Source of the DNA: Christensenellaceae bacterium | GTDB taxonomy: Bacteria > Bacillota > Clostridia > Christensenellales > Borkfalkiaceae | Reading direction: 5' to 3' | Length of the DNA stretch: 64,000 nucleotides | Assembly (NCBI GenBank): GCA_045655805.1 | Contig: JAZOPZ010000015.1 | Coordinates: 41,704-105,703, forward strand | In this document: one piece after another, positions 7,115 to 55,652 of the stretch | Layout: every line of letters begins with the position of its first letter | Numbering within the stretch: position 1 is the first letter of the stretch | The notes under the pieces: generated by a model | The model's input: only the letters and a program-made list of their open reading frames with translations | Databases searched by the model: none | Told to the model about the DNA's origin: nothing | Position numbers and translations under genes: made by a program

Positions 7115-8230
7115 TTATAAGGTTTTTAACGCCGTTAAAAGTTCATCTATTTCAGAAACTGTGTTTTGTGCTGATAGGCTTACTCTAACGCATCCCGACT
7201 TTTTAGTGCCTAAAAATTCGTGCATTAAAGGTGCGCAATGATAGCCACCACGAGTGGCGATATCAAAGTCTTCGCTTAACCTGTAAGATAATTGAGAACT
7301 TTCGTAGCCACTCAAGTTAAAGGAAACTATGCCACACTCGTTAGCGGTTGAATAGACGGTTACGCCACTGATTCTTTTTAGTTCTTTAATAAGGTATTCC
7401 GTTTTGCTCTTTAACGCTTTGCTAAAATGCGCAAGGACTTTTTCGGTGTGCAAAACAGCCTCGCCAAGGCTTGCTATAGCCGGTAGATTAAGAGTGCCAC
7501 TTTCTAGCCTCTCGGGCATTGTTTCGGGTTGTAAAAGTGAAAAGGTTTCCGTTCCGGTGCCTCCCATTATAAAGGGGCGACAGTCAACTCCGTCGTTCAA
7601 GATTAGTGCGCCACTACCGGCAATTCCACCTAGCGCTTTGTGTCCAGCAACGGCTAGCATTGAGATATTATCTTTAATTATATCTATCTTTTTATGACCT
7701 GCAAGTTGAGCGCCGTCGATAAGCAAGAGTACACCTTTGGCGTTTAACGTATGCGCCAAATCTTGCCATTTGGTAACTTCACCCGTGACGTTGGACGCCC
7801 CGTTTATTGCTACTAAATATGTGTTCTTTTGTAGTTTATTAAGGATTGGTGCAGTTAGGTCTCCATTTGTAGGTTTAATAACGGTTAGTGTTATAACGCC
7901 TATGCTTTGCAAAAAATATAGAGGGCGTAAAACGGAATTGTGTTCGTAAACGGTAGTTATTACGTGGCCACCTTTTTTCACCGTGCCAAAAATTGCCGTA
8001 TTTAACGCTTGGGTACAGTTAGCCGTAAACACGACGTTGTTTATAGTTTTTACATTAAAAAATTTTGCTACGCTTTTTCTTGCGTCAAAAATTAGTTCAG
8101 CCCCTTTTAGTGAAAGTCTATGGCTACTTCTGCCTGGATTTGCGTTAAGGTGCTTTATAAGTGTGGTGGCTGTTTCTGTTACGGCGGAAGTTTTAAATCC
8201 ACCCGTTGCGCCGTTGTCAAAATATATCAT
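7115..8230 (-). CDS. Class V aminotransferase / cysteine desulfurase family protein
   Basis: N-terminal IYFDNGATG and a PLP-lysine context (AGHKALGG) typical of the NifS/CsdA-like fold. Confidence 0.8.
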   Translation of the reverse strand: MIYFDNGATGGFKTSAVTETATTLIKHLNANPGRSSHRLSLKGAELIFDARKSVAKFFNVKTINNVVFTANCTQALNTAIFGTVKKGGHVITTVYEHNSVLRPLYFLQSIGVITLTVIKPTNGDLTAPILNKLQKNTYLVAINGASNVTGEVTKWQDLAHTLNAKGVLLLIDGAQLAGHKKIDIIKDNISMLAVAGHKALGGIAGSGALILNDGVDCRPFIMGGTGTETFSLLQPETMPERLESGTLNLPAIASLGEAVLHTEKVLAHFSKALKSKTEYLIKELKRISGVTVYSTANECGIVSFNLSGYESSQLSYRLSEDFDIATRGGYHCAPLMHEFLGTKKSGCVRVSLSAQNTVSEIDELLTALKTL

Positions 8231-14125: not shown

Positions 14126-14210
14126 ACTTAAAACTTAAACTTAAAAAGGGTAAGAATATTAAAAATATTTGTAAATATAGCGTTTAATTTGCCGTTTGTA
14201 ATAAACTCAA

Positions 14211-14318
14211 TATATCTTTGGGGCAGGGTGTAAATCCCGACCGGCAGTTATAGTCTGCGAGCGTTAGCACGATTCGGTGTAATTCCGAGACCGACGGTAT
14301 AGTCCGGATGAGAAAAGT
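14211..14318 (+). promoter_or_regulatory. FMN riboswitch (RFN element) aptamer
   Basis: tctttGGGGCAGGGTGtAAATCCCgACCGGCaGT...GCGAGC...GATTCGGTGtAATTCCGaGaCCGACgGTATAGTCcGGATGagAgAAg matches the RFN consensus block by block. It lies upstream of a riboflavin-transporter gene. Confidence 0.9.
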
Positions 14319-14321
14319 TTT

Positions 14322-14345
14322 TTGCGCCCTTTGGCGCAATTTTTT
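14322..14345 (+). terminator. Riboswitch expression-platform terminator
   Basis: TTGCGCC-cttt-GGCGCAA followed by TTTTTT, ending 1 nt before the GGAGG RBS of ribU. Confidence 0.8.
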
Positions 14346-25176: not shown

Positions 25177-25336
25177 TTGACAAAAGTTATTGTCAATGAT
25201 AAAATTACCGTGTAATTGAATAACCGTAGACAGTCGGTGTCTAACGTAAAGGGCAATAGCCCACCGACCGAGGTAATCAGTATTTAGTTTTTCGTAATTA
25301 ACTCTTGATTGCTTTGGCGTGGTCAAGAGTTTTTTC
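25177..25336 (+). promoter_or_regulatory. rplJ promoter and L10-leader-like attenuator
   Basis: TTGACA-17-TAAAAT at 25177-25205. Structured leader (ccgtagacagtcggtg...ccaccgaccgagg) ending in terminator AACTCTTGA-N14-TCAAGAGTT plus TTTTT (25300-25336). The position matches the Firmicute L10 leader. Family assignment needs a covariance-model check. Confidence 0.55.
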
Positions 25337-25399
25337 GTTATATTCGATAGATACGGTTTGCCGAAAGGCTTTTCACAAAAATATAGGAGGTAACGACAA

Positions 25400-46473: not shown

Positions 46474-46503
46474 AAAAGGAGCATAGAAATATGCTCCTTT
46501 TTT
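46474..46503. terminator. Bidirectional terminator between convergent gdhA and the acyltransferase gene
   Basis: AAAAGGAGCAT-agaaat-ATGCTCCTTTTTT. Confidence 0.85.
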
Positions 46504-46513
46504 AATTGTCAAA

Positions 46514-47353
46514 TTATTCTTCAAAAGTGAGTGGTTCGCCGTAAAAAGATTCGTACGCGTCAACCCAAATTTTATAGTTCTTATCAAGCATTTGTTGAGA
46601 ATTTTCTTTATTAGATAAGTTAGCGTCAGGGTAGATTGCTGGAAAAAACTCAATATAATATTCCTGTACTAAAAAGCCATCGTCGTCTACGATATTGCTA
46701 TCTTTCATCTTAATAAATACCGGCAAAACGGGTACTTTGTTTGAAACCGCAATCTTGAACGCCCCTGGCTTTAACGGGCGTGGTTTGCGATAGTTCCACC
46801 ACATTGCTTGTTCAGGGTAAATTAAAATCTTTTCGCCACGTTCAAGCAAGGTTGCAACGCTTTTGTTAAAGTACTTCATAGTTTCCATACTAGAACTTAA
46901 AGGCAAAGTGTTGCAATGTCGCATCATAAGTCTAACTGGACCTTTAAAGTTGGTGTAGTTTGATTCTTTAATAACCTTAAAAAGTCTTTGTCTACGCTTT
47001 AATGCCGGTATCATTGCTCTATAAACGGCGTAGTTATCTCTTATGTTAAAATGATTGCTAGTTACTATAGCACCGCCCTTAACGGCTGACACGTTTTCTA
47101 GACCTTTAACTTCTTTGATAATGAATTTTTGTTTTTTAATCATTATTTCAAAATAAGTTTTACCAACGAAGTTCGCAATACCCGTCAAAATTTTGCTAGA
47201 TAACTTTTTGATAGTGTAGTCAACGTCTTTTGGTTTAATGGTAATAGCGGGATCATCTTCTTCAACGTCGTCGTTAAAGCGTTTGTTAAGTTCGTAATCT
47301 TTAATGCGTTCTAAAACTTTTAATCTGTCTTCGGCTTGTTTTATTTCTTCCAT
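46514..47353 (-). CDS. Lysophospholipid (1-acyl-glycerol-3-phosphate-type) acyltransferase family protein
   Basis: NHxxxxD motif (SNHFNIRD) and a downstream IYPEQ block. Confidence 0.65.
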   Translation of the reverse strand: MEEIKQAEDRLKVLERIKDYELNKRFNDDVEEDDPAITIKPKDVDYTIKKLSSKILTGIANFVGKTYFEIMIKKQKFIIKEVKGLENVSAVKGGAIVTSNHFNIRDNYAVYRAMIPALKRRQRLFKVIKESNYTNFKGPVRLMMRHCNTLPLSSSMETMKYFNKSVATLLERGEKILIYPEQAMWWNYRKPRPLKPGAFKIAVSNKVPVLPVFIKMKDSNIVDDDGFLVQEYYIEFFPAIYPDANLSNKENSQQMLDKNYKIWVDAYESFYGEPLTFEE

Positions 47354-47382
47354 AATAAATACCTTATTATTAGTTTACTACT

Positions 47383-48324
47383 TTATTTTTCCGCCGTCAA
47401 TTTATCGAACCATAATTTTTTGAAAGTGCGTTCACTTTTGCTAACTTGTTCAATGCCTTTGAGTAAATTTAAAAACATTTGATAGTCCTTTTGTTGGTCT
47501 TCGTCAGTATAACTTTTAAGGTTATCTAAAATGATATCGTAAAATTGACTTTCCTTTGCGTACGTCCAAAAATATTCACCGTTAATGGTGGTGTCGTAAT
47601 GCCAAGGTTTGTTCGCTAAAGCGTAGTGGCAAAGTTTTAATTCGCCCTCGGGTGGTTCAGGAAAACTATGCTTATTCCATCCCGTTGGTAAGTACTTGAC
47701 TTTACCGTGACAGATAACGTTTATGTATTCTTGGTCAGGGGCAAGACAGTCAAAGTTATAGGTTGTTAGCATATTTAAGAATTTATCTTGAACTTTAAAT
47801 TTTCTAAATTCTTTTAAGTTCATAACCATTACGCCAGAATTAAAATAGGTGTGTGGAGGTATGCCTATAACTTCTTTTACGTAGTTGGTAAAGCGTGGGT
47901 CTCTGTGCGTGTTTTGTTCGTAGATTGCGCCGACCAAATTCTCACCGATATCTTCGTCAAAAAGTTCTGCAATATCAGTTAAAAGTATAACGTCGCAGTC
48001 CAAATAGATAGCCTTATCATATTGTGGGAAGGCTTTTTCTATGAATAACCTATAATAAGCGGCAAGAGTATAGTAAAACATATCAGGCAACGTCTTTTTA
48101 ATAGGTTCTAACATATCTTGAACGTCGTAAAAACTAACCGAAAAGTTTTCCCTATTATGTCTTTTTAGTTTTGATTGATTTTCTTCGGTAATATTTGTGT
48201 TAAGTACCGTGATTTCATAATTATTGGTCGCTGACGCGTGTTTTGCTATTGAAACAAGTGCAACGTCAAGGTAAGGAACGTAATTGTCACTCGCCGCAAA
48301 AAATATAGGTATGGTTTTTGACAT
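47383..48324 (-). CDS. Glycosyltransferase family 8 protein
   Basis: IPIFFAASDNYVPY N-terminus, DxD (YLDCDVIL), FNSGVMVMN block. Confidence 0.78.
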   Translation of the reverse strand: MSKTIPIFFAASDNYVPYLDVALVSIAKHASATNNYEITVLNTNITEENQSKLKRHNRENFSVSFYDVQDMLEPIKKTLPDMFYYTLAAYYRLFIEKAFPQYDKAIYLDCDVILLTDIAELFDEDIGENLVGAIYEQNTHRDPRFTNYVKEVIGIPPHTYFNSGVMVMNLKEFRKFKVQDKFLNMLTTYNFDCLAPDQEYINVICHGKVKYLPTGWNKHSFPEPPEGELKLCHYALANKPWHYDTTINGEYFWTYAKESQFYDIILDNLKSYTDEDQQKDYQMFLNLLKGIEQVSKSERTFKKLWFDKLTAEK

Positions 48325-48525
48325 AATTTACTCCTTCGTGAAATATTTTTATAAGTTTTACACGGGTATAATACAAAATTTTATTAAATATTCCAAGAGA
48401 ATTTGTAAAACTGTATTCTCAAATTAGAATAGTCTATCGGACACCAACGTCCGATAACTCTCTCGCCACGCGAGAATTGCGTGATTTTTGTTGATTTTTG
48501 CTAAATTTTATGCTAAAATACGGAT

Positions 48526-49137
48526 ATGAAGAACTTGAGAGAAATTATTTCCACTAATCTTATCAACTTAAGAAAGCAAAACAACTTAACACAAATTGAA
48601 CTCGCAAAACAAATAAATTTTTCCGACAAGGCAATTTCTCGCTGGGAAAAAGGTGAGTGTTTGCCTGATATTGAAACGATTGAAAAGTTAAGTGAAGTAT
48701 TTAACGTGCCTATGTCTGCTATATTAGAAAGTCAAGACGGTGGGCATAAGGTAGTAAGTACTAAACCAACCAAACAAGAAGTTTTATCTCAAATATTTTT
48801 GATTTGTGAATTGTGGGTTATTTTATCAGTTATTTACGCTTATGTTAACGTTGCCAAAGGTAAAAATATGTGGCAAATTTTCGTTTGGGGTGTTCCGGCG
48901 ACGGCGTTTGTGGTTTTCTTCCAAAATAAAAAGAACCACAATAACATAATCGGGTTCGTTTCTGCAACGGTGTTTATTTGGACTTTTATAACTTCACTCT
49001 TTTTGCATTTGATTGAATCGTGTCCGTGGTACTTTTATATTTTGGGCGTCCCAATGCAAGGCATGTTAATAGTTAGATATATATTTAACTATAAACAGAA
49101 GAGCATTCTAAAGGAAAAGTTAAAGAAAACTGAATAG
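48526..49137 (+). CDS. XRE-family HTH protein fused to a 3-4 TM membrane domain
   Basis: LRKQNNLTQIELAKQINFSDKAISRWEKGE HTH, followed by hydrophobic helices. Confidence 0.78.
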   Translation: MKNLREIISTNLINLRKQNNLTQIELAKQINFSDKAISRWEKGECLPDIETIEKLSEVFNVPMSAILESQDGGHKVVSTKPTKQEVLSQIFLICELWVILSVIYAYVNVAKGKNMWQIFVWGVPATAFVVFFQNKKNHNNIIGFVSATVFIWTFITSLFLHLIESCPWYFYILGVPMQGMLIVRYIFNYKQKSILKEKLKKTE

Positions 49138-49275
49138 TTTTAATCAAAGTGGGTTTATCTGTGATAAATCCACTTTTTAGTTAATAATTTAGACTTTGCT
49201 ATTGACTACCTTTTATCGTCGTGATAAAATAATAACGGCTTTGTTTAAGGTCTTAATAAAATATCATGGTGGGTT

Positions 49276-50570
49276 ATGAAAATTTATCCAGTAACGGATT
49301 TCGGCGCAATTCCAAACGGCGACGGTTTGCAAACTGAATATTTTCAAAAGGCAATAGACACTGCTTTTTTAGCGGGTGGTGGTGAAGTTGTAGTTCCTGC
49401 AGGTAGTTATATAATGGTGGGATTAGACTTCGTTCAAACATAGTATTTCGCGTAAAATCGGGCGCTACTATCTTTGGTACTAGAGACGTTTCAGAGTATT
49501 GGTTCTATCTTAACGATACCATTGAACCGTACCCTATGGAGTTTGTTACAGACAAAAACTACGTGCGTCCACAATTTAGAAATAACGATTTTGACTTCTT
49601 AAAAGAAGGTTCGCGTTGGAATAACGCGTTGATTAGGATTGATTTTGCGCAAAACGTTTCGCTTATTGGGGAAGAAGGCGCTGTTATAGACGGTCAAGAC
49701 CCCTACGATCCTGTTAACGAAGAGTTTTATCGTGGACCACACGGCGTTACGATAGCATATTCTAAAAACGTAACTTGCAAAGGTTTTACTTTGCAAAACA
49801 CGGGGAATTGGGCTTTTAATATTAGATATTCGCAAAACGCCAAATTTGAAGATATAACGGTAAACGGCGGGCACGACGGAGTGCATATGACTACTTGCGA
49901 AAATATAATTATTAAAAACTGTAATTTTTACACGGGTGACGACTGCGTTGCCGGTATGGGCAATCTTAACGTTTACGTTAGCGATTGTATAATGAATACT
50001 GCTTGTTCGGCATTTAGGTTCGGTGGCACAAATTTATATGCCGAAAGGTGTAAGGTGTATGGTCCTGCTGAATATTTTTTCCGTGGAGGGCTGTCGCTAG
50101 AGGATAAAATAAAAGGTGGACCTGCAAAAGTTGGCAGAAATAACACTCTTTCTATTTTTACCTATTACGCTGATAAAACTGCGCCTATTCCATATTTACC
50201 GGGTAATATACAAATAGTTGATTTCGAGGCTAAAAACGTGGATAGGTTTTTGCACTACAACTTTTCGGGTAACGAAGTTTGGCAACTGGCTGTTCCGCTT
50301 AAATCTATACGGTTTGAAAACGTTAAGGCTGAAAACGTTGCGTTGCCACTTACTGCTTACGGTGATAAACAGGTTAAAATCGACCTTGAACTTAAAAATG
50401 TAGACGTTGATTTTGGAGTGGAAAATATACCGTTTATTCAAGGCGCGCATTTTGACAAGTTGACGCTAGAAAACGTAAAAATTAAAGGTAAAATCAGTTC
50501 GCTCGTTAAGTCTTGGACGGACGGAGGTAAAATGACGTTTGATAACGTTACGGGTTATATACCTGAATAA
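49276..50570 (+). pseudogene. Glycoside hydrolase family 28 (polygalacturonase-like) gene interrupted by one frameshift
   Basis: 55-codon N-terminal fragment (MKIYPVTDFGAIPNGDGLQTEYFQKAIDTAFLAGGGEVVVPAGSY..) stops at 49441. The next frame, open from 49407, continues GGIRLRSNIVF... into ORF 49536..50570, which has parallel beta-helix repeats (GHDGVHM, TGDDCVA). Frames differ by 1 nt near 49410-49425. Confidence 0.65.
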
Positions 50571-50634
50571 AAAGTTATCGTTACGGATGAAGAATTTATT
50601 TGCAATCCTATATAATTGGTGTTATATAATGCTT

Positions 50635-50658
50635 AACGGTATTATGAAAACTGACCAA
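50635..50658 (+). repeat. Dispersed 24-nt repeat, variant copy (AACGGTATTATGAAAACTGACCAA)
   Basis: 18/24 identity to the consensus. Lies 20 nt before structured element A. Confidence 0.6.
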
Positions 50659-50676
50659 AATAATTTTAATCAAATT

Positions 50677-51048
50677 AAAAAGGCGAGTTTGTCGCTCTTC
50701 CCATAGGGAATTGCGACAACTAAATAAATCCTTACGGATTTGTGATAATTTGAAAAATTTTCTTGCAAAGCAAGATATTTTTCAAAGTGATATTGCCTAC
50801 GGCAGTTATATTCGACTTGCGTCGAGCTAAGGATTTGTTTAATATAACTTTGGCGTAGTCAAAATATAACTGCTTGTAAATCAAGCAATATCACTTTTAG
50901 CCACAAGGCTAAAAATATAACTAATATGTTTCAATTTTTTGTGGACAAGAAAAGCACACTACATTTCACTTTTAGTGAAGTATAGTGTGCTACACTTTTG
51001 TTATGGATAAATAATCCCTAAGCGAAGAGCCCTTTTGCTCGCCTTTTT
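50677..51048 (+). ncRNA. Hairpin-dense non-coding element, copy A (342-nt conserved core 50688-51029 enclosed by AAAAA-GGCGAG...CTCGCC-TTTTT); candidate structured RNA or MITE-like element
   Basis: Reverse-complement twin at 53896-54268. At least 9 local hairpins and two 9-11-bp long-range pairings (AGTTATATT/AATATAACT; AAAGTGATATT/AATATCACTTT). The ncRNA type and the strand are tentative; the strand rests on G-U pairs that exist only in this sense. Confidence 0.6.
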
Positions 51049-51060
51049 CGTTTTCAAATA

Positions 51061-51867
51061 TTAGTCGTGGTAGCCTTTCTTTCTTAAAAGGTCTAAAACG
51101 ACGTCAGGGTTATTGCAGGTGATAAGTTCAGCACCTACTTCAATCGCACGGTCAACGCCACCTTCGTCTTTTACACTTGCTCCTGCCCAAGGTTGAACGC
51201 CTTTGGCAGTCATTTTATCGCATACGTCTTTATCTGGAATATTATACTTGTCCCAAGTGTCCGTAAACATACAAGAGCAATAAGCATATTCGTAAGGGTT
51301 TCTGGTTGTATTACTCATACAGTTTGACGGATAGTACACGTGTTGACGATATTTTTTGCCGTATTTATTATTAATATATTCGTTAAGTCTGCCACTCCAA
51401 GAGTTGATAACTACTCTATCGGTAAAGCCATAGTCGTCAACAATTTTTAATACTCTATCGCAAACGCTATAAGCAAGTTCTTCTCTGCCGTCGGTAGGGT
51501 ATTCTTTAAGTTCAATATCGACGGTCATTTCAGGCAACGTTTTAACGTAGTCCATAAATTCAATAAAGGTGGGGATTTTTTCGCCCTTAAATTCTTCTCC
51601 CTTATGAATACCTGCGTCAAGCACTTTAAGTTCACTTAAAAACTTTTCACAAACTTTGCCCTTGCCGTTTGTGGTACGGTCAACGGTGGCATCGTGAATA
51701 ATTACTAATTCGTTATCAAGTGTTACTCTAACATCAATTTCTAATTGGTCAACACCTATTTCAACAGCCTTTTTAAATGCAATCATAGTATTTTCAGGAT
51801 ACTTTGAACACCAACCACGGTGTGCTGCTACGTAAATGTTCTTTTTAGATTGTTTCCAATAATTCAT
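51061..51867 (-). CDS. Glycerophosphodiester phosphodiesterase
   Basis: AHRGWCSKYPENT and EIDVRVTLDNELVIIHD motifs of the GDPD family. Confidence 0.88.
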   Translation of the reverse strand: MNYWKQSKKNIYVAAHRGWCSKYPENTMIAFKKAVEIGVDQLEIDVRVTLDNELVIIHDATVDRTTNGKGKVCEKFLSELKVLDAGIHKGEEFKGEKIPTFIEFMDYVKTLPEMTVDIELKEYPTDGREELAYSVCDRVLKIVDDYGFTDRVVINSWSGRLNEYINNKYGKKYRQHVYYPSNCMSNTTRNPYEYAYCSCMFTDTWDKYNIPDKDVCDKMTAKGVQPWAGASVKDEGGVDRAIEVGAELITCNNPDVVLDLLRKKGYHD

Positions 51868-51943
51868 AATACTGCCCCCTTGTATCGTGTTGATTTAGAT
51901 AATTTTAGCATAATTATTTTGAAAATTCAATGCACAACTAAAA

Positions 51944-52481
51944 TTATGTGTTTAGAATTTCGATTTGACAAGTAGCCATTGCCGAAAGAGCATTTTGATG
52001 ACTTTCTTTGCTAACGCCGGCGCAACCTTTAGTGTCTACTTTAACGGTTACTTCTGGTAAGGTCGCCTTAATTAACATTGCGTTTGAGATTACGCAAATA
52101 TCCGTACAAAGTCCTAATAAAGTAACCGTTTCGATAGGCTCAAGGTTGTTCGCTTTTTTCAAAATTTCTGCAAGTTCAGTCGAGCCAAAGGTCGGTTTGT
52201 CGATCACCATGCATTTTGAAGCGTAGGGGGGCAAGTGATTTATCTATTTGCCAACCGTCAGTACCTTTTATGCAATGTGGTACAGGTAATTTTTTGCCTT
52301 CTTGTGTTTTAAGGTAGTCTTCTTGGTGGGTATCTCTTGTAAAAATTACGATTTCGCCACTATCAAAAGACTGCTTTACGCAATCTGCGACGTGCGGTAC
52401 GATAGCAACGGCGTCAGCGCTACCGAGCGCACCGTCGATAAAGTCCTTTTGCATGTCAACTACTATTAAAAAGTTTTGCAT
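51944..52481 (-). pseudogene. Isochorismatase/nicotinamidase-family cysteine hydrolase, split by a +1 insertion in a C6 (plus-strand G6) tract
   Basis: ORFs 52176..52481 (MQNFLIVVDMQKDF...) and 51944..52234 (..VIDKPTFGSTEL...GLCTDICV..) are the two halves of one family member. Removing one base from the G6 run at 52226-52231 fuses them as ..KSLAPYASKCMVIDKP... Confidence 0.75.
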
Positions 52482-52490
52482 AAATTTCTC

Positions 52491-52970
52491 CTATTTCGTA
52501 AGGTCTGAATATTCAGCGTTTAAAAAGTTTTTAAGGTCGTTAGGGGGTAGTATGATTTGTTCACCACGCATACCTGCACTAACATAAATTTTGTCCCATA
52601 AAATAGCCGTTTCGTCTATAAAGGTAGGAAATTTTTTCTTCATGCCGATAGGGGAGCAACCCCCTCTTATATAGCCCGTTAACGGCAAAAGTTCTTTTAC
52701 GGCAATTAGTTCAACTCGCTTGTCCTTGCTAGCCACAGCGCATTTTTTAAGGTCTAATTCTTCCTTGACGGGTATGACGTAAACCCTAGGTTCGCCCTTG
52801 TCGTTTTTGGCAACTAGTGTTTTAAAAATAATTTCACAATCAACGCCTAAAACTTTGGCTACGTGTACGCCCGAAAGATCGCTTTCGTCTACTTCGTAAC
52901 AAGCAGTCTCGTAGGGGATTTTATTAGTTTCTAAAGCGCGCATCGCGTTGGTTTTAAGTAGTTTCGCCAT
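52491..52970 (-). CDS. ybaK: Cys-tRNA(Pro)/Cys-tRNA(Cys) deacylase YbaK/EbsC
   Basis: 159 aa. The TNAMRALE..IPYE N-terminus and GGCSPIG motif are typical of YbaK. Confidence 0.85.
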   Translation of the reverse strand: MAKLLKTNAMRALETNKIPYETACYEVDESDLSGVHVAKVLGVDCEIIFKTLVAKNDKGEPRVYVIPVKEELDLKKCAVASKDKRVELIAVKELLPLTGYIRGGCSPIGMKKKFPTFIDETAILWDKIYVSAGMRGEQIILPPNDLKNFLNAEYSDLTK

Positions 52971-53092
52971 ATTTTTATTGTAGCACTTTCAAAATAAAAT
53001 TACAAGACGTATTGACATATTTTATAATATGTTTTACAATTGATTTGCCAAAAGAAGGGCTTAATTTATTTTGTTACGTGACGAGGTTTGTT

Positions 53093-53878
53093 ATGAAAAA
53101 AATTGCGTTTGGAGTTTATCCACAAGGCAAAAGGATGTGTGTGACTTTTTCGTATGACGACGGAAAGTTGAACGATATTAGGCTTTGTGAACTTTTCAAA
53201 AAATACGGTATGAAAGCGACTTTTAACTTAAATTCTTCAAATATCGGTAGAGATACTTATATTTCTCAAGATGACGTTAAAAAAATGGTCGCGGACGGTT
53301 TTGAAGTAGCCGTTCACAGTGTTTTTCATCCACTTTTGGAAACGATGCCTGACCAAATTATTGTTAATGAGATTTTAGAAGACAAGCGCGCTCTTGAAAA
53401 AATGACTGGTAATATTATTACGGGTATGGCGTATCCTTTTGGCACTTACGATAAAAGGGTAACTGATATTGCAAAGCGTTGTGGTATAAAATATTCTCGC
53501 ACAACGAAGTATGACGGTTATAGTTTTTCTACCGATTTTATTGAGTGGAATTCAACTTGTCATCATAGGGATATGGCTAAATTTTTACCTTTGCCAGAGC
53601 ATTGGTGGACAAACTTGTTCTACGTTTGGGGGCACTCTTACGAATTTAACACCGAAGAACTTTGGCAAGAGTTTGAAAACAACCTTAAGCAAATTGCGTT
53701 TAGTGACAAATATTGGTACGCAACTAACGGTGAAATTTGCGAATATATAACGGCGCAAAAATCTTTAATATTCTCCGCGGATTGCGATATGGTTTATAAT
53801 CCAACGGCAATAGACGTATGTATTTTGGTTGATGACATTTGCGTTGAAGTAAAAGCCGGGCAGACGGTTTCATTTTAA
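53093..53878 (+). CDS. Polysaccharide deacetylase (NodB-homology) family protein
   Basis: TFSYDDG motif 1, HSVFH motif 2. The ATG at 53093 inside ORF 53012..53878 follows GACGAGG. Confidence 0.8.
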   Translation: MKKIAFGVYPQGKRMCVTFSYDDGKLNDIRLCELFKKYGMKATFNLNSSNIGRDTYISQDDVKKMVADGFEVAVHSVFHPLLETMPDQIIVNEILEDKRALEKMTGNIITGMAYPFGTYDKRVTDIAKRCGIKYSRTTKYDGYSFSTDFIEWNSTCHHRDMAKFLPLPEHWWTNLFYVWGHSYEFNTEELWQEFENNLKQIAFSDKYWYATNGEICEYITAQKSLIFSADCDMVYNPTAIDVCILVDDICVEVKAGQTVSF

Positions 53879-53895
53879 ACATTATATAATATAAT

Positions 53896-54268
53896 AAAAA
53901 AGAACGGTAAGCCTCTCTTCGCTTAGGAATTTTTTATCCATAACAAAAGTGTAGCACACTATACTTCACTAAAAGTGAAATGTAGTGTGCTTTTCTTGTC
54001 CACAAAAAATTGAAACATATTAGTGATATTTTTAGCCTTGTGGCTAAAAGTGATATGCAAAACAAGTTTTGCGTGATATTTTGGCTAACGCCAAAGTTAT
54101 ATTAAATAAATCCTTAACTTGCCAAGGCAAATATAACTGCCGTAGGCAATATCACTTTGAAAAATATCTTGCTTTGCAAGAAAATTTTTCAAATTATCAC
54201 AAATCCGTAAGGATTTATTTAGTTGTCGCAATTCCCTACGGGAAGAGCGACAAACGCCGTTCTTTTTT
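53896..54268 (-). ncRNA. Hairpin-dense non-coding element, copy B (340-nt core 53915-54254 enclosed by AAAAAA-GAACGG...CCGTTC-TTTTTT); inverted twin of copy A
   Basis: The reverse complement aligns with copy A end to end. It is near-identical outside the segment 54057-54130, where three hairpins have different sequences. Confidence 0.6.
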
Positions 54269-54290
54269 ATTGTGTTTTAAAATTAAAGAC

Positions 54291-54327
54291 AAAAAAATCC
54301 CACTCAAGAAGAGTGGGATAATATTTT
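54291..54327 (-). terminator. Intrinsic terminator of the PH-domain gene
   Basis: Minus-strand ATCCCACTC-ttctt-GAGTGGGAT followed by TTTTTTT. Confidence 0.85.
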
Positions 54328-54347
54328 ACGCGTAATTAAAATAAATA

Positions 54348-54836
54348 TTAGGAACCAAATACGTGGCTAACCTTGTTTGAATCGCTATCCATAACGCCTT
54401 CAAGATACTTCTTTAACTTTTCAGGTTTTTTAATACCAACGGTACCAACATCAAGTTCATCGCCACCAAAATTATCGATAACGATATCGCCGTAGCCAAA
54501 AAGTCTAGCACGGAAGGTTTTAAAGATGCTTACTGCTTTAACGCCAAAGAAAGCGGTTTGTTTTTCCCATCTACGGAAAACGCCTCTCTTTTGAACGATT
54601 CTATCATCATAGAATTCAATGGCAACACAGCCGTTGCTGATAAGTTTACAAATAAGTTTTAATAACCAAAGTGCACCAAGAGCAATAGGTACAATGGTTG
54701 CTACGGTTGCAAGCATACCAGTTAAGCCAAGTGCGCCAGGAAGCACGAGACCAACGATAACAAGTGCTGCAATAAGAGCGAGTTTCCATAATTTGATTAC
54801 TTTCCAAGCGCTCATTTTAACTACGTAATTAGGCAT
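54348..54836 (-). CDS. Bacterial PH-domain (bPH_2 / YdbT-like, membrane-flanked) protein
   Basis: Two TM helices followed by a short beta-rich domain. The ATG at 54836 is 7 nt after AAGGAG (ORF track extends to 54857). TTGACA-17-TATAAT promoter at about 54868-54896 on the minus strand. Confidence 0.65.
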   Translation of the reverse strand: MPNYVVKMSAWKVIKLWKLALIAALVIVGLVLPGALGLTGMLATVATIVPIALGALWLLKLICKLISNGCVAIEFYDDRIVQKRGVFRRWEKQTAFFGVKAVSIFKTFRARLFGYGDIVIDNFGGDELDVGTVGIKKPEKLKKYLEGVMDSDSNKVSHVFGS

Positions 54837-55370: not shown

Positions 55371-55510
55371 GCGTCGGCGAAATTTACTAAAAACAGTTCC
55401 CCAAACTGTTTTTCTTAACGCAAATTTACCCAAGGGTTCTGCGTCCTGTGCTAAAATAAAAAAACCACCCTAGTGGTTTTAGACAAACTGTTGGTGTTGG
55501 TAACAGGACT
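55371..55510 (-). repeat. Tandem duplication unit 2 (140 bp), overlapping the genuine 3' end of tRNA-Leu and its terminator
   Basis: Contains the minus-strand terminator AAAACCAC-taggg-GTGGTTTTTTT and a long AAAAACAGTT/AACTGTTTTT hairpin. Confidence 0.85.
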
Positions 55511-55574
55511 TGAACCTGCATGGTTGCCCATAGGAGTCTGAGACCTACGCGTCTGCCAATTCCGCCATACCAAC
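55492..55574 (-). tRNA. tRNA-Leu (anticodon CAG), CCA encoded
   Basis: Manual fold: acceptor GTTGGTA/TACCAAC, D-arm GCGG-AATTGGCAGA-CGCG, anticodon arm TAGGT-CTCAGAC-TCCTA, long variable arm, T-arm ACAGG-TTCAAGT-CCTGT, A73, CCA. Confidence 0.9.
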
Positions 55575-55578
55575 AAAT

Positions 55579-55652
55579 TGGAGCAGGTGAAGGGAATCGA
55601 ACCCTCGAATACTGCTTGGGAAGCAGTCATTTTACCACTAAATTACACCTGC
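55579..55652 (-). tRNA. tRNA-Gly (anticodon CCC), CCA encoded
   Basis: Manual fold: acceptor GCAGGTG/CACCTGC, D-arm ATTT-AGTGGTA-AAAT, anticodon arm ACTGC-TTCCCAA-GCAGT, T-arm GAGGG-TTCGATT-CCCTT, U73, CCA. Confidence 0.92.

Follow-up and report, generated by a model that had tools for sequence, protein, structure and literature searches.

Copies A and B, two closely related intergenic sequences, are likely to be gene-less, MITE-like members of a family of mobile elements that insert between the arms of intrinsic bidirectional terminators in gut Clostridia. Both occur in the window, which is the whole 64-kb stretch of DNA that was analysed, and both carry a modular array of hairpins. This array is also found in longer relatives, where it is accompanied by a gene for a four-helix-bundle (4HB) protein.

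Two copies with a divergent centre

Copy A is about 350 nt long and non-coding, with no open reading frame attributable to the element. The window holds two copies, and in the alignment B is the reverse complement of A. The arm pairs 50888-51029/53915-54056 and 50687-50819/54123-54255 are each 98% complementary. Between A and B, 31 aligned columns mismatch, 27 of them in the 75-nt core at 50813-50887 and 4 in the remaining 268 nt (Fisher p=3.4e-16). The original prediction of near-identical arms around a divergent centre is therefore borne out. The divergent block has 9-mers as its boundary on either side. All six of the variable segments fold into the hairpins that had been described (TCGAC/GTCGA versus TTGC/GCAA, TTGGC/GTCAA versus TTGGC/GCCAA, and GCTTG/CAAGC versus GCAAAA/TTTTGC). 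The first and third hairpins are indeed replaced between the copies, but a single indel and a single substitution are all that separate the middle ones (50850-50862). Nor are near-identical arms peculiar to A and B, as the right arm of A is 97-100% identical to copies in other genomes (L140, L147 and L052, numbered loci of the family).

The 64-kb window has 12 occurrences of the 9-mer AATATMACT, compared with 1.8 expected, and none of 100 shuffles reaches 12; 10 of the 12 are inside A and B. Its A/C position switches between the copies at 50868 and 50919, as had been noted. The 9-mer had been read as a direct repeat present four times. The four plus-strand 9-mers are there, but two minus-strand ones at 50786-50794 and 50804-50812 had been missed, and because of these two inverted 9-mers the array is convergent and not direct. 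The coordinates of these features are given in Table 1.

Table 1. Positions in the window of copies A and B, their predicted structural features and the flanking terminator halves
Feature	Positions	Strand	Remarks
Host terminator left half, site A	50677-50687		A-run and arm GGCGAG; complementary to 51038-51048
Element copy A, gene-less, about 350 nt	50688-51037	-	Minus strand is the orientation of the 4HB-bearing relatives
Terminal hairpin TTGTCGC-tc-TTCCC-ata-GGGAA-tt-GCGACAA, with TAGGGA end motif	50689-50719		Predicted fold
Long-range partner TAAATAAATCCTTA	50721-50734		Complementary to 50828-50841
Long hairpin module (hairpin 3)	50749-50786		In 5/18 copies; short CGTC-taac-GACG in the others
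9-mer AATATCACT (plus strand AGTGATATT)	50786-50794	-	
Hairpin module GCC-tac-GGC	50795-50803		Fold and comparison of 18 copies
9-mer AATATAACT (plus strand AGTTATATT)	50804-50812	-	
Variable hairpin 1 (centre hairpin) TCGAC-ttgc-GTCGA	50812-50825		In B, TTGC-cttg-GCAA at 54119-54130
Centre linear segment TAAGGATTTGTTTA	50828-50841		Long-range partner of 50721-50734
9-mer AATATAACT	50841-50849	+	
Variable hairpin 2 TTGGC-gta-GTCAA	50850-50862		G.T wobble on plus strand
9-mer AATATAACT	50863-50871	+	AATATCACg in B
Variable hairpin 3, type 1 GCTTG-taaat-CAAGC	50872-50886		In B, type 2 GCAAAA-cttg-TTTTGC at 54057-54072
9-mer AATATCACT	50887-50895	+	
Invariant hairpin TTTAGCC-acaa-GGCTAAA	50896-50913		6/7 pairs unvarying in 18 copies
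9-mer AATATAACT	50914-50922	+	AATATCACT in B
39-nt hairpin	50953-50991		Three pairs with double changes
Terminal inverted-repeat segment TCCCTAAGCGAAGAGC	51015-51030		Pairs with 50694-50709 (GCTCTTCCCATAGGGA) at 14/16 positions
Host terminator right half, site A	51038-51048		Arm CTCGCC and T-run
Host terminator left half, site B	53896-53907		A-run and arm GAACGG
Element copy B	53908-54256	+	Inverted relative to A
Variable core of B	54057-54130		Hairpins 54057-54072, 54081-54094, 54119-54130; 93% identical to L140 core
Host terminator right half, site B	54257-54268		Arm CCGTTC and T-run

Insertion between terminator arms and the wider family

A relative with a GDPD gene that is 90% identical, L148, has an intact terminator, AAAAAGGCGAG-tgtttg-CTCGCCTTTTT, with a 6-nt loop between GDPD and GH28. 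At the equivalent site the window has the same terminator stem, split by the 350-nt element. Since the intact terminator lies exactly at the position of A, this filled and empty pair of sequences shows copy A to be an insertion into the loop of a predicted intrinsic bidirectional terminator hairpin. Presence and absence at orthologous sites is seen elsewhere too: L150 is also empty at site A, with a plain terminator, L153 has a plain terminator at site B, and the window is empty where L147 is filled. Site B gives no clean empty-site match, as L151 keeps AAAAGAACGG but with an unrelated 52-nt insert and the stem of L153 differs. At least 13 of 17 window-type copies are flanked by an inverted repeat of 5-16 bp that is particular to the site, preceded by an A-run and followed by a T-run. 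So are 10 gene-bearing composites, and all of these copies and composites are at different sites. Convergent genes flank 29 of the 53 gene-less arrays that have close neighbours, and divergent genes flank only 2.

The family was collected with one 22-base search pattern, which gave more than 119 loci, from gut and rumen Clostridia MAGs. Every relative is a MAG or metagenome contig; some of the copies, such as L100, lie at the end of a contig, and the assembly there may be chimeric. A genome can hold several copies, for example at least 5 arrays in MAG JAZSNM01, and the loci of the window have no synteny to other family loci. The right part of B is 97% identical to L147, and the adjoining syntenic gene 79%. 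L049, L015 and L035 have in common a 1.33-1.36 kb composite with 96-98% identity and homology that stops at its ends. The terminal inverted repeats given in Table 1 have the same pairing with a different sequence in L060. The terminator-loop insertion and the large mobile family behind the variable centre were not part of the original prediction.

The longer relatives, of 0.7-2 kb, have the same end and the same array plus a PF05635 four-helix-bundle gene and variable cargo genes, so far an Ltp lipoprotein and a methyltransferase. The 117-aa protein, of the 23S rRNA intervening-sequence type with an Avd-like pentamer, matches PF05635 (E=3e-29) and PDB 2RLD (E=1e-31), and is the only conserved protein of the longer relatives; it is not a known transposase. 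Its gene is present in about 22 related loci, and about 20 loci have it at a distance of 34-35 nt from the array. The protein family is very large, with at least 7,999 homologs at E<=1e-10. The end and array of A are homologous to those of the minimal 4HB element L070, which places A in this family; segment 51015-51030 matches the left end of L070 with 85% identity over 27 nt. The place of the 39-nt hairpin at 50953-50991 is held in longer relatives by the 4HB gene and its terminator (L070 and L116 compared).

Several other kinds of element were considered and rejected. No direct target-site duplication was found at the junctions of the 17 copies compared; the sequences on either side form the arms of one palindrome. 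An inverted target duplication created by insertion was rejected because the empty site already has both arms. A and B do not form a composite transposon around the 2.9-kb segment, since each copy has its own matched terminator arms and the genes between the copies are ordinary and syntenic in relatives. A replication origin was suggested by the iteron-like 22-27 bp spacing and the DnaA-box-like TGTGGACAA and was rejected, the element being multi-copy, insertion-polymorphic and not near dnaA. Searches for a phage or plasmid origin gave no blastn match in either collection and none in viral contigs. None of the composites was found to encode a transposase, integrase or reverse transcriptase, and no Y1 transposase was found next to any array.

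The location of the element raises a different question, namely whether it acts, or has been co-opted, as a bidirectional transcription stop and RNA-stabilising block, similar to REP/BIME, that replaces the terminator it has split. Each half would give four units of a hairpin and a U-rich AGUUAUAUU to a transcript entering from that side, and the stems would be free in sequence as long as they fold. Such a role is compatible with mobility, and it is in keeping with the position of the element exactly in terminators between convergent genes and with a loose scan of 50400-54500, in which several modules score as terminator-like (15 found, 3.4 expected). The symmetric 4+4 design and the strand chosen by Rfam for the Gut-1 motif also fit a reading as hairpin followed by 9-mer. 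However, AGUUAUAUU is weak as a U-tract because it starts with AG and just 5 of its 9 bases are U. The wobble pairs go the wrong way as well: read as hairpin followed by AGUKAUAUU, the array has 25 non-Watson-Crick A.C against 6 G.U. The conserved long-range pairing, the terminal repeats and the link to the four-helix-bundle gene are left out of this explanation, and we regard it as rather unlikely.

Pairing and probable module exchange in the array

The core module of the array is a short GC hairpin plus AGTKATATT, usually laid out as four forward and four reverse modules. This 4+4 layout recurs across the family, with 9-mers spaced 16-27 bp apart. In 18 full-length copies, 93.9% of the cells in the proposed hairpins are paired, compared with 33-48% when the partners are slid. 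Fourteen pairs have changes on both sides, and none of 500 shuffles reaches the observed values. Across the whole family, 262 of 315 distinct segments between 9-mers are near-perfect hairpins (83%). These comparisons show that pairing is conserved, and selection on structure, which had been proposed for A and B, is supported. The expectation that pairing is always preserved was also largely upheld. For variable hairpin 1, 4 of 5 pairs have double changes in the 18 copies, and a half-compensated intermediate occurs in L136. The terminal hairpin at 50689-50719 covaries with a GCCG/CGGC type in L136, L060, L143 and L017.

A long-range complement is present in 98 of 116 arrays, compared with 1 of 116 in the control, and has at least 5 covarying variants. 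In A, the partner at 50721-50734 overlaps an invariant hairpin at 50726-50741. The predicted folding is very strong (z = -12.9 and -12.5) and is as good on one strand as on the other. Wobble pairs show a mirror-symmetric bias, with G.T and A.C mismatches favouring opposite strands in the two half-arrays. No simple single-strand model accounts for this mismatch pattern. A ladder of helices, in which left 9-mers pair with right 9-mers, was considered and rejected. Nested pairs show no covariation between their G/T and C/A positions, and complementarity of the outermost pair was limited to 3 of 31 configurations, each of them T/A and none G/C.

Strong folding and covariation in both the hairpins and the long-range helix are also what a free-standing, trans-acting structured sRNA gene would have, and Rfam classes Gut-1 as an sRNA. 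The element would then be a long Gut-1 RNA, its hairpins and 9-mers a protein-binding platform or sponge, and its copies paralogous genes. We consider this improbable. The element is polymorphic in presence inside a host terminator, has many mosaic copies at unrelated sites, and in its longer versions holds protein genes within the same boundaries. No conserved promoter was found for the element, and a single-transcript RNA on one strand is not supported given the mirror-symmetric wobble bias, which does not fit one strand, and the equal folding of both strands.

The -35 of a strong promoter, TTTACT-17-TGcTATAAT, directly adjoins the first 9-mer, and this promoter is positioned to give a leaderless four-helix-bundle mRNA. 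The 9-mers could thus form a double-stranded DNA operator array for this promoter, in which case gene-less copies would be decayed remnants and the hairpins incidental. Their spacing and inverted 4+4 order suit an operator, as does the K/M position, which does not covary between the halves; for this reason the 9-mers are taken as sequence motifs and not as helix partners. A double-stranded operator, however, does not need palindromic spacers, yet near-perfect hairpins are kept by compensatory changes and a covarying long-range complement exists. Gene-less copies also keep the array 97-100% identical across genomes. The probability of this explanation appears to be low.

The variable centre itself is a mosaic. 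The core of A is nearest to L010 (87% identity) and that of B to L140 (93%), and segment by segment A and B have different nearest relatives. The type 1 hairpin at 50872-50886 is common to L010, L052, L100 and L124, and type 2 to L140, L147, L135 and L122. All four combinations of long or short hairpin 3 with type-1 or type-2 hairpin 8 exist, and module alleles recur at unrelated genomic sites with different flanking stems. These sequences support cassette exchange, the other process that had been proposed. The middle differs between copies yet folds because the core is built of exchangeable hairpins with a fixed 9-mer between them. The variation had been expected to be confined to the three hairpins, which is not so: in 18 full-length relatives the hairpin at 50749-50786 is swapped in 13, and the terminal hairpin and the 39-nt hairpin also vary, covarying.

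Neutral divergence in a duplicated spacer had been thought insufficient to give this pattern, and that judgement was sound. The copies are paralogous and nothing further favours such an origin or an artefact of alignment; the clustering of differences (p=3e-16), the presence of both core haplotypes in other genomes and the conserved pairing refute both, leaving them virtually no probability. The proposal that the hairpins are swappable specificity determinants, guide- or address-like modules that select targets, fared little better. The variation does cluster in discrete modules with constant motifs on their flanks, as would be expected of such determinants, but the stems are just 4-6 bp long and no complementary or identical sites, target-like or beyond chance, were found for them within the 64-kb window. 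Since the same alleles occur in copies at unrelated insertion sites with different flanking stems, the modules do not track the target, and a role in specificity is very improbable.

In the mobile-element explanation, which we prefer, TAGGGA-bearing terminal inverted repeats would surround a 4+4 array with an asymmetric centre, the edge of which would pair with one distal end of the array. One half-array would correspond to the Gut-1 RNA motif of Rfam. Constraint would act on the 9-mers and the fold and leave the stem sequences free, so that the repeated 9-mers could serve as points of recombination or template switching at which family members exchange modules. Stems may also drift through compensatory substitutions. 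Exchange and drift together would thus produce near-identical copies with different hairpins at the same positions. We infer that the array is a cis-acting site read as single-stranded hairpins plus 9-mer. The reader is probably the four-helix-bundle protein, supplied in trans, and it is the adjacency of gene and array that suggests binding. Gene-less A and B would depend on gene-bearing copies elsewhere in the genome; supply in trans is an assumption because tblastn found no match to a four-helix-bundle gene in the 64-kb window.

Relation to known systems

The Gut-1 RNA motif (Rfam RF01706) consists of four conserved heptamers with three short covarying hairpins between them; it is known from gut-derived sequence only and was described as a stand-alone non-coding RNA with unknown function (Weinberg et al. 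2010, PMC2864571). The array resembles it in having four heptamers and three short hairpins, with a full-length alignment to model positions 1-77. The two window matches to the covariance model, at 50717-50798 and 54144-54225, reach 38.5 bits and do not attain the gathering score of 50, which L055 (58.6 bits), L056 (51.7) and L082 (50.9) exceed. Alignments of the window and of L021 cover the whole model (E about 1e-6), and Rfam families other than Gut-1 gave chance-level matches only. The heptamer here is GU(G/U)AUAU, in contrast to GUGAAAU in Gut-1, and the motif here is half of a convergent 4+4 array in a terminator-loop mobile element linked to a protein gene.

The intervening sequences (IVSs) of 23S rRNA with an S23p/PF05635 protein, for example in Coxiella and Leptospira, are selfish insertions at the tip of a host RNA hairpin (PMC4990558). 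They are bounded by inverted repeats, carry the PF05635 gene with short tandem repeats upstream, and spread horizontally by an unknown mechanism (PMC4990558). Insertion at a hairpin tip, inverted-repeat bounds and, in the gene-bearing relatives of A and B, the PF05635 gene are shared with the present family. Unlike the IVSs, the host hairpin is an intrinsic terminator between protein genes and not 23S rRNA helix 25 or 45, and the copies in the window have lost the PF05635 gene. In a literature search no description of a 4+4 hairpin array, cargo genes or gene-less derivatives was found for IVSs, and none of this element family in the literature on Gut-1, PF05635/S23p and terminator-targeting elements.

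It is possible, and we suggest it only tentatively, that PF05635 (Avd-like) proteins and Gut-1-type arrays make up an unrecognised class of mobile cassette that homes into hairpin-encoding DNA loops without a conventional transposase, in terminators here and in 23S rRNA helices 25 and 45 elsewhere. The 9-mers would be protein sites on a folded single strand and the hairpins structural spacers. If this is true, the orphan IVS/S23p proteins and Gut-1 would have a common function. Three orphan observations meet here: Gut-1, without a function since 2010, the four-helix-bundle/IVS family, and the arrival of IVSs at hairpin tips. We know of no role for the four-helix-bundle/23S IVS protein family outside DGR Avd. 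With a clean filled and empty pair for terminator-loop insertion, and with gene-less and gene-bearing forms, mobility can be tested experimentally. If the element moves without a dedicated recombinase, this would be a new route for the spread of gene cassettes in the gut microbiome. For genome annotation, hundreds of intergenic 'structured RNAs' of gut Clostridia may be mobile-element cores, and such repeats break metagenome assemblies, as seen from the many copies at contig ends.

Integron attC sites offer an analogy only. They are read by their single-strand fold, have short conserved motifs flanking a middle of variable sequence and conserved structure, and are attached to promoter-poor cassettes. 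No integrase, R/L core sites or cassette array is present here and the 4+4 layout is unrelated; conserved short motifs around a sequence-variable, structure-conserved middle are what the two have in common.

Bacterial MITEs and modular intergenic repeats have been reviewed (PMC2229807). Like a MITE, the element is short, non-coding and multi-copy, with terminal inverted repeats and presence/absence polymorphism. BOX of Streptococcus pneumoniae, Correia and REP/BIME are short, non-coding, multi-copy intergenic repeats that fold strongly and have terminal inverted repeats; in BOX the number of internal modules varies, and such repeats prefer the 3' ends of genes. RAYT-mobilised REP/BIME elements have a conserved imperfect palindrome of 20-40 nt with a 5' tetranucleotide of the GTAG type, and occur in genomes that have a RAYT gene. 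The present palindromes are instead free in sequence (315 distinct segments), with the constant 9-mer outside the stem. The element further differs from the MITE, BOX and REP types in its lack of sequence similarity and of a target-site duplication, and in its insertion specifically between terminator arms. Its modules are a hairpin with a free stem plus a 9-mer, and the one conserved protein of its longer relatives is a 117-aa helical bundle and not a transposase or RAYT.

IS1397 and ISKpn1 insert into REP palindromes at the loop, and class C group II introns land just after intrinsic terminators; in both cases the hairpin landing site makes the insertion harmless. These elements encode a DDE transposase, or a reverse transcriptase and a ribozyme, with nothing comparable here. 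What they share with the terminator-loop family is that they land at a DNA or RNA hairpin.

Two copies and their variable centre

The segment 50687-51029 of the window is present again, reverse-complemented, at 53915-54255, and no third copy was found in the 64 kb. These two gene-less copies, A (50688-51037) and B (53908-54256), match in arms that are 98% complementary each, and a short central stretch interrupts the match. In the pairwise alignment 31 columns differ inside the element, 27 of them within 75 nt (50813-50887) and 4 in the other 268 nt (Fisher p=3.4e-16), which bears out the original prediction of near-identical arms around a divergent centre. All six variable segments of A and B fold alone as hairpins, as had been described. 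Of the 12 occurrences of the 9-mer AATATMACT in the window (1.8 expected), 10 are in A and B. The prediction had recognized this repeat and taken it to be direct. The repetition stands, but the direct arrangement does not; two inverted 9-mers, at 50786-50794 and 50804-50812, had been overlooked, and because of them the array is convergent. The divergent block begins directly after one 9-mer and stops at another. Predicted folding is well above that of shuffles on both strands (z = -12.9 and -10.1).

Features of copy A, in order on the plus strand, and of the gene-bearing unit of longer relatives
Feature	Location	Remark
Terminal hairpin	A 50689-50719	first part on plus strand
Invariant hairpin	A 50726-50741
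Long hairpin	A 50749-50786
AGTGATATT, then hairpin, then AGTTATATT	A, between long hairpin and centre
Centre hairpin	A 50812-50825
Centre linear segment	A 50828-50841	complementary to 50721-50734
Four AATATMACT + hairpin units	A, after centre
30-nt spacer	A, between the four units and 39-nt hairpin
39-nt hairpin	A 50953-50991
Tail	A, last part	final 16 nt pair with 50694-50709
Left end	gene-bearing unit, part 1	carries ..TAGGGATTTTTT
Small terminator	gene-bearing unit, part 2
Cargo genes	gene-bearing unit, part 3	zero to two
Four-helix-bundle gene	gene-bearing unit, part 4
4+4 array	gene-bearing unit, part 5	four forward, four reverse 9-mers
Terminal hairpin	gene-bearing unit, part 6

The variation was analyzed in an alignment of 18 full copies, from the listed matches and the window. 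Across these copies the 9-mers, two of the hairpins and the long-range segments stay constant, and the remaining hairpins change sequence yet keep pairing, with 93.9% of cells paired versus 33-48% for slid partners. Double-sided changes affect fourteen pairs, and 0 of 500 shuffles reached the observed values. One pair of the centre hairpin is C-G in most copies, C.T in L136 (L numbers denote loci or contigs of relatives) and A-T in A, a series that looks like a compensatory path. The long hairpin exists in two forms, long or short, among the 18 copies. The hairpin at 50872-50886 in A is of type 1 in A, L010 and L052 and of type 2 in B (54057-54072), L140, L147 and L135, and all four combinations of form and type are found. 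Among the matches listed, the nearest relatives change from segment to segment. The core of A is closest to L010 (87%) and the core of B to L140 (93%), and the right arm of A is 97-100% identical to those of L140, L147 and L052 and also to that of B. The simplest account of these sequences would be that family members swap modules, each a short hairpin and its 9-mer, at the repeated 9-mers, alongside compensatory drift with the fold under selection. The exchange may proceed by gene conversion or template switching. Neutral divergence is excluded by the clustering of 27 of 31 differences, the pairing that is kept and the shuffles. The original prediction had made the same two points, that pairing survives where the hairpins vary and that this is not ordinary neutral divergence, and the 18 homologous copies agree with it on both, with selection for the fold and modular variation.

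Insertion into terminator loops

Copy A lies between the convergent genes GH28 and GDPD, and copy B between the convergent genes for a polysaccharide deacetylase and a bPH protein. Around each copy is a perfect stem of its own, AAAAAGGCGAG...CTCGCCTTTTT for A and AAAAAAGAACGG...CCGTTCTTTTTT for B, with an A-run before it and a T-run after it. The 17 full-length relatives of A and B among the matches listed occupy unrelated genomic sites, and at least 13 of the 17 are bracketed by differing, site-specific stems with A and T runs. L148 is a metagenome contig whose GDPD is 90% identical to that of the window. Its GDPD and GH28 are convergent as in the window, and the 133-nt spacer holds AAAAAGGCGAG-TGTTTG-CTCGCCTTTTT, which is the stem of the A site with a 6-nt loop where the window has the 350-nt element. 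The element has thus inserted into the loop of a terminator, and the A site of L148 is the decisive case. Plain terminators also occupy the A site of L150 (GDPD 84%) and the B site of L153. In L151 the B site (1628-1700) keeps the left arm AAAAGAACGG, but its right arm is degenerate and it contains an unrelated 52-nt insert with TCCC.../...TAGGGGTAT; this might represent a footprint of excision or else a minimal element. L147, syntenic with 41.4-46.5 kb of the window, carries a full copy (7744-8164) in the terminator after the glutamate-dehydrogenase gene, with the stem GGTCGC/GCGACC. The window counterpart, also after the glutamate-dehydrogenase gene, is a plain bidirectional terminator at 46474-46503 (AAAAGGAGCATA-gaaa-TATGCTCCTTTTTT). 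Of 53 gene-less arrays with close neighbours among the matches listed, 29 are in convergent, 22 in tandem and 2 in divergent settings. No direct target duplication was seen at the compared insertion sites.

The neighbourhood has other features. Between A and B, the isochorismatase gene (51944-52481) is broken up: two ORFs, 52176-52481 and 51944-52234, overlap, and each of them matches one half of PF00857. The gene is intact in L150 and L153 (178-190 aa), and the window gene is probably a frameshifted pseudogene. A 446-aa GH28 gene directly follows the glutamate-dehydrogenase gene in L148 and L153. In the corresponding stretch of the window (46514-50570), three extra genes separate the two (a 279-aa ORF and genes for a GT8 glycosyltransferase and an HTH regulator), and the GH28 ORF has 344 aa versus 446 aa in relatives, which suggests that a local insertion or rearrangement truncated GH28. 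An FMN riboswitch (14210-14323), a ribosomal protein L10 leader (25206-25345), two tRNA genes (55495-55652) and a GC content of 38% are consistent with ordinary features of a Firmicutes/Clostridia chromosome.

Gene-bearing relatives and the Gut-1 family

The only Rfam match of the element is Gut-1 (RF01706), full-length at 38.5 bits (E=4e-6), below the gathering score of 50. Phage, plasmid and viral collections gave no matches. A family scan of one genome per species with the pattern AAAGTGATATTG-N5-15-CAGTTATATT gave at least 119 loci; all relatives are from MAGs or metagenome contigs. Among the matches listed, nearly all loci come from MAGs of Clostridia from the gut or rumen (Christensenellaceae, Acutalibacteraceae, Oscillospiraceae and others), and a genome often has several. 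All matches listed are arrays of short hairpins with AGTKATATT between them, most frequently four forward and then four reverse 9-mers, and 262 of their 315 distinct inter-9-mer segments are near-perfect symmetric hairpins. The family is Gut-1 in the broad sense, with Gut-1 as half an array, because three arrays (L055, L056 and L082) exceed the Gut-1 gathering score and the Gut-1 consensus itself consists of four heptamers and three hairpins. In some members 4-11 modules all point one way instead of 4+4, namely in L082 (3628-3878), L002 (1273-1412) and the CALGVF01 loci L005, L008, L018, L034, L101 and L108. The arrays of the CALGVF01 MAG adjoin a second repeated GC-rich hairpin, GGGACGACGCCTCGGCGTCCC.

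In about 22 loci among the matches listed, a 117-aa gene lies 34-35 nt from the array and is directed away from it, preceded by a strong predicted promoter positioned for a leaderless mRNA. The protein belongs to PF05635, the 23S rRNA intervening-sequence protein (E=3e-29), and matches PDB 2RLD (E=1e-31). PF05635 proteins form pentameric rings of four-helix bundles and are encoded by selfish intervening sequences (IVS) at the tip of helix 45 of 23S rRNA (PMC4990558). The 64-kb window has no four-helix-bundle gene. In ten gene-bearing loci among the matches listed, the whole 0.7-2 kb unit is within a site-specific terminator stem. The cargo varies by copy (an Ltp-type surface lipoprotein, PF07553, a SAM methyltransferase, or unknown proteins of 123, 130 and 165 aa) and lies downstream of the four-helix-bundle gene in L021 (6036-7292), L015, L049, L035, L020 and L097; this composite pattern resembles cassette-like exchange. 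L049, L015 and L035, from different species-level genomes, have a common unit of 1.33-1.36 kb at 96-98% identity, and the homology ends at the unit boundaries. The left end of L070, a minimal unit, and the matching end of A share 85% identity over 27 nt, directly after the terminator arm in both. Because this end and the array modules align with A, A and B are, on the alignment, gene-less derivatives of gene-bearing units. The 39-nt hairpin in A and B takes the place of the gene in the longer relatives.

Role of the array and comparison with known systems

In 98 of 116 arrays among the matches listed, the edge of the centre is complementary to one distal end over a long range, versus 1 of 116 in the control, and this complement occurs in at least five covarying sequence versions. 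Given this covarying complement, selection acts on the element as a folded single strand whose asymmetry is defined. The 9-mers were rejected as helix partners, since their variable positions do not covary between the halves. Complementarity of the outermost 9-mers occurs in just 3 of 31 configurations, each of them T/A and none G/C. When both halves are read 9-mer-then-hairpin, that is on opposite strands, hairpin mismatches are G.T-compatible (25 versus 6; 10 versus 0 in the oriented subset), and the G.T versus A.C bias is mirror-symmetric between half-arrays in all arrays listed. The modules may restore termination or stabilise flanking mRNAs, a role compatible with mobility, but the weak U-tract and the wobble bias speak against it. 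The best inference makes the array the element's cis-acting site, in which the constant 9-mers would be read by the adjacent four-helix-bundle protein and the hairpins would serve as structure-only spacers. This reading is based on the position of the four-helix-bundle gene next to the array and from the behaviour of Avd, the DGR homolog of this protein, which binds structured RNA. A DnaA-box-like TGTGGACAA (50932-50940) is located just beyond the outermost 9-mer and is moderately conserved; several relatives (among L010, L060 and L021) have a perfect DnaA box, TGTGGATAA, there.

In the literature searched, no description was found of Gut-1 as half of a convergent array, of the terminator-loop location, of the PF05635 association with cargo or of the gene-less derivatives. 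The A/B element resembles a MITE in that it is short and multi-copy with terminal repeats, that its sites are found both filled and empty and that a longer relative is coding; unlike a MITE, it has neither a target duplication nor a recognisable transposase. The model match relates it to Gut-1, but the window copies are below the Rfam threshold. Like the 23S IVS, it is at a hairpin tip and has relatives linked to PF05635, but it is outside rRNA and the window copies are gene-less. The element is a variant of several known kinds, belonging to no single one.
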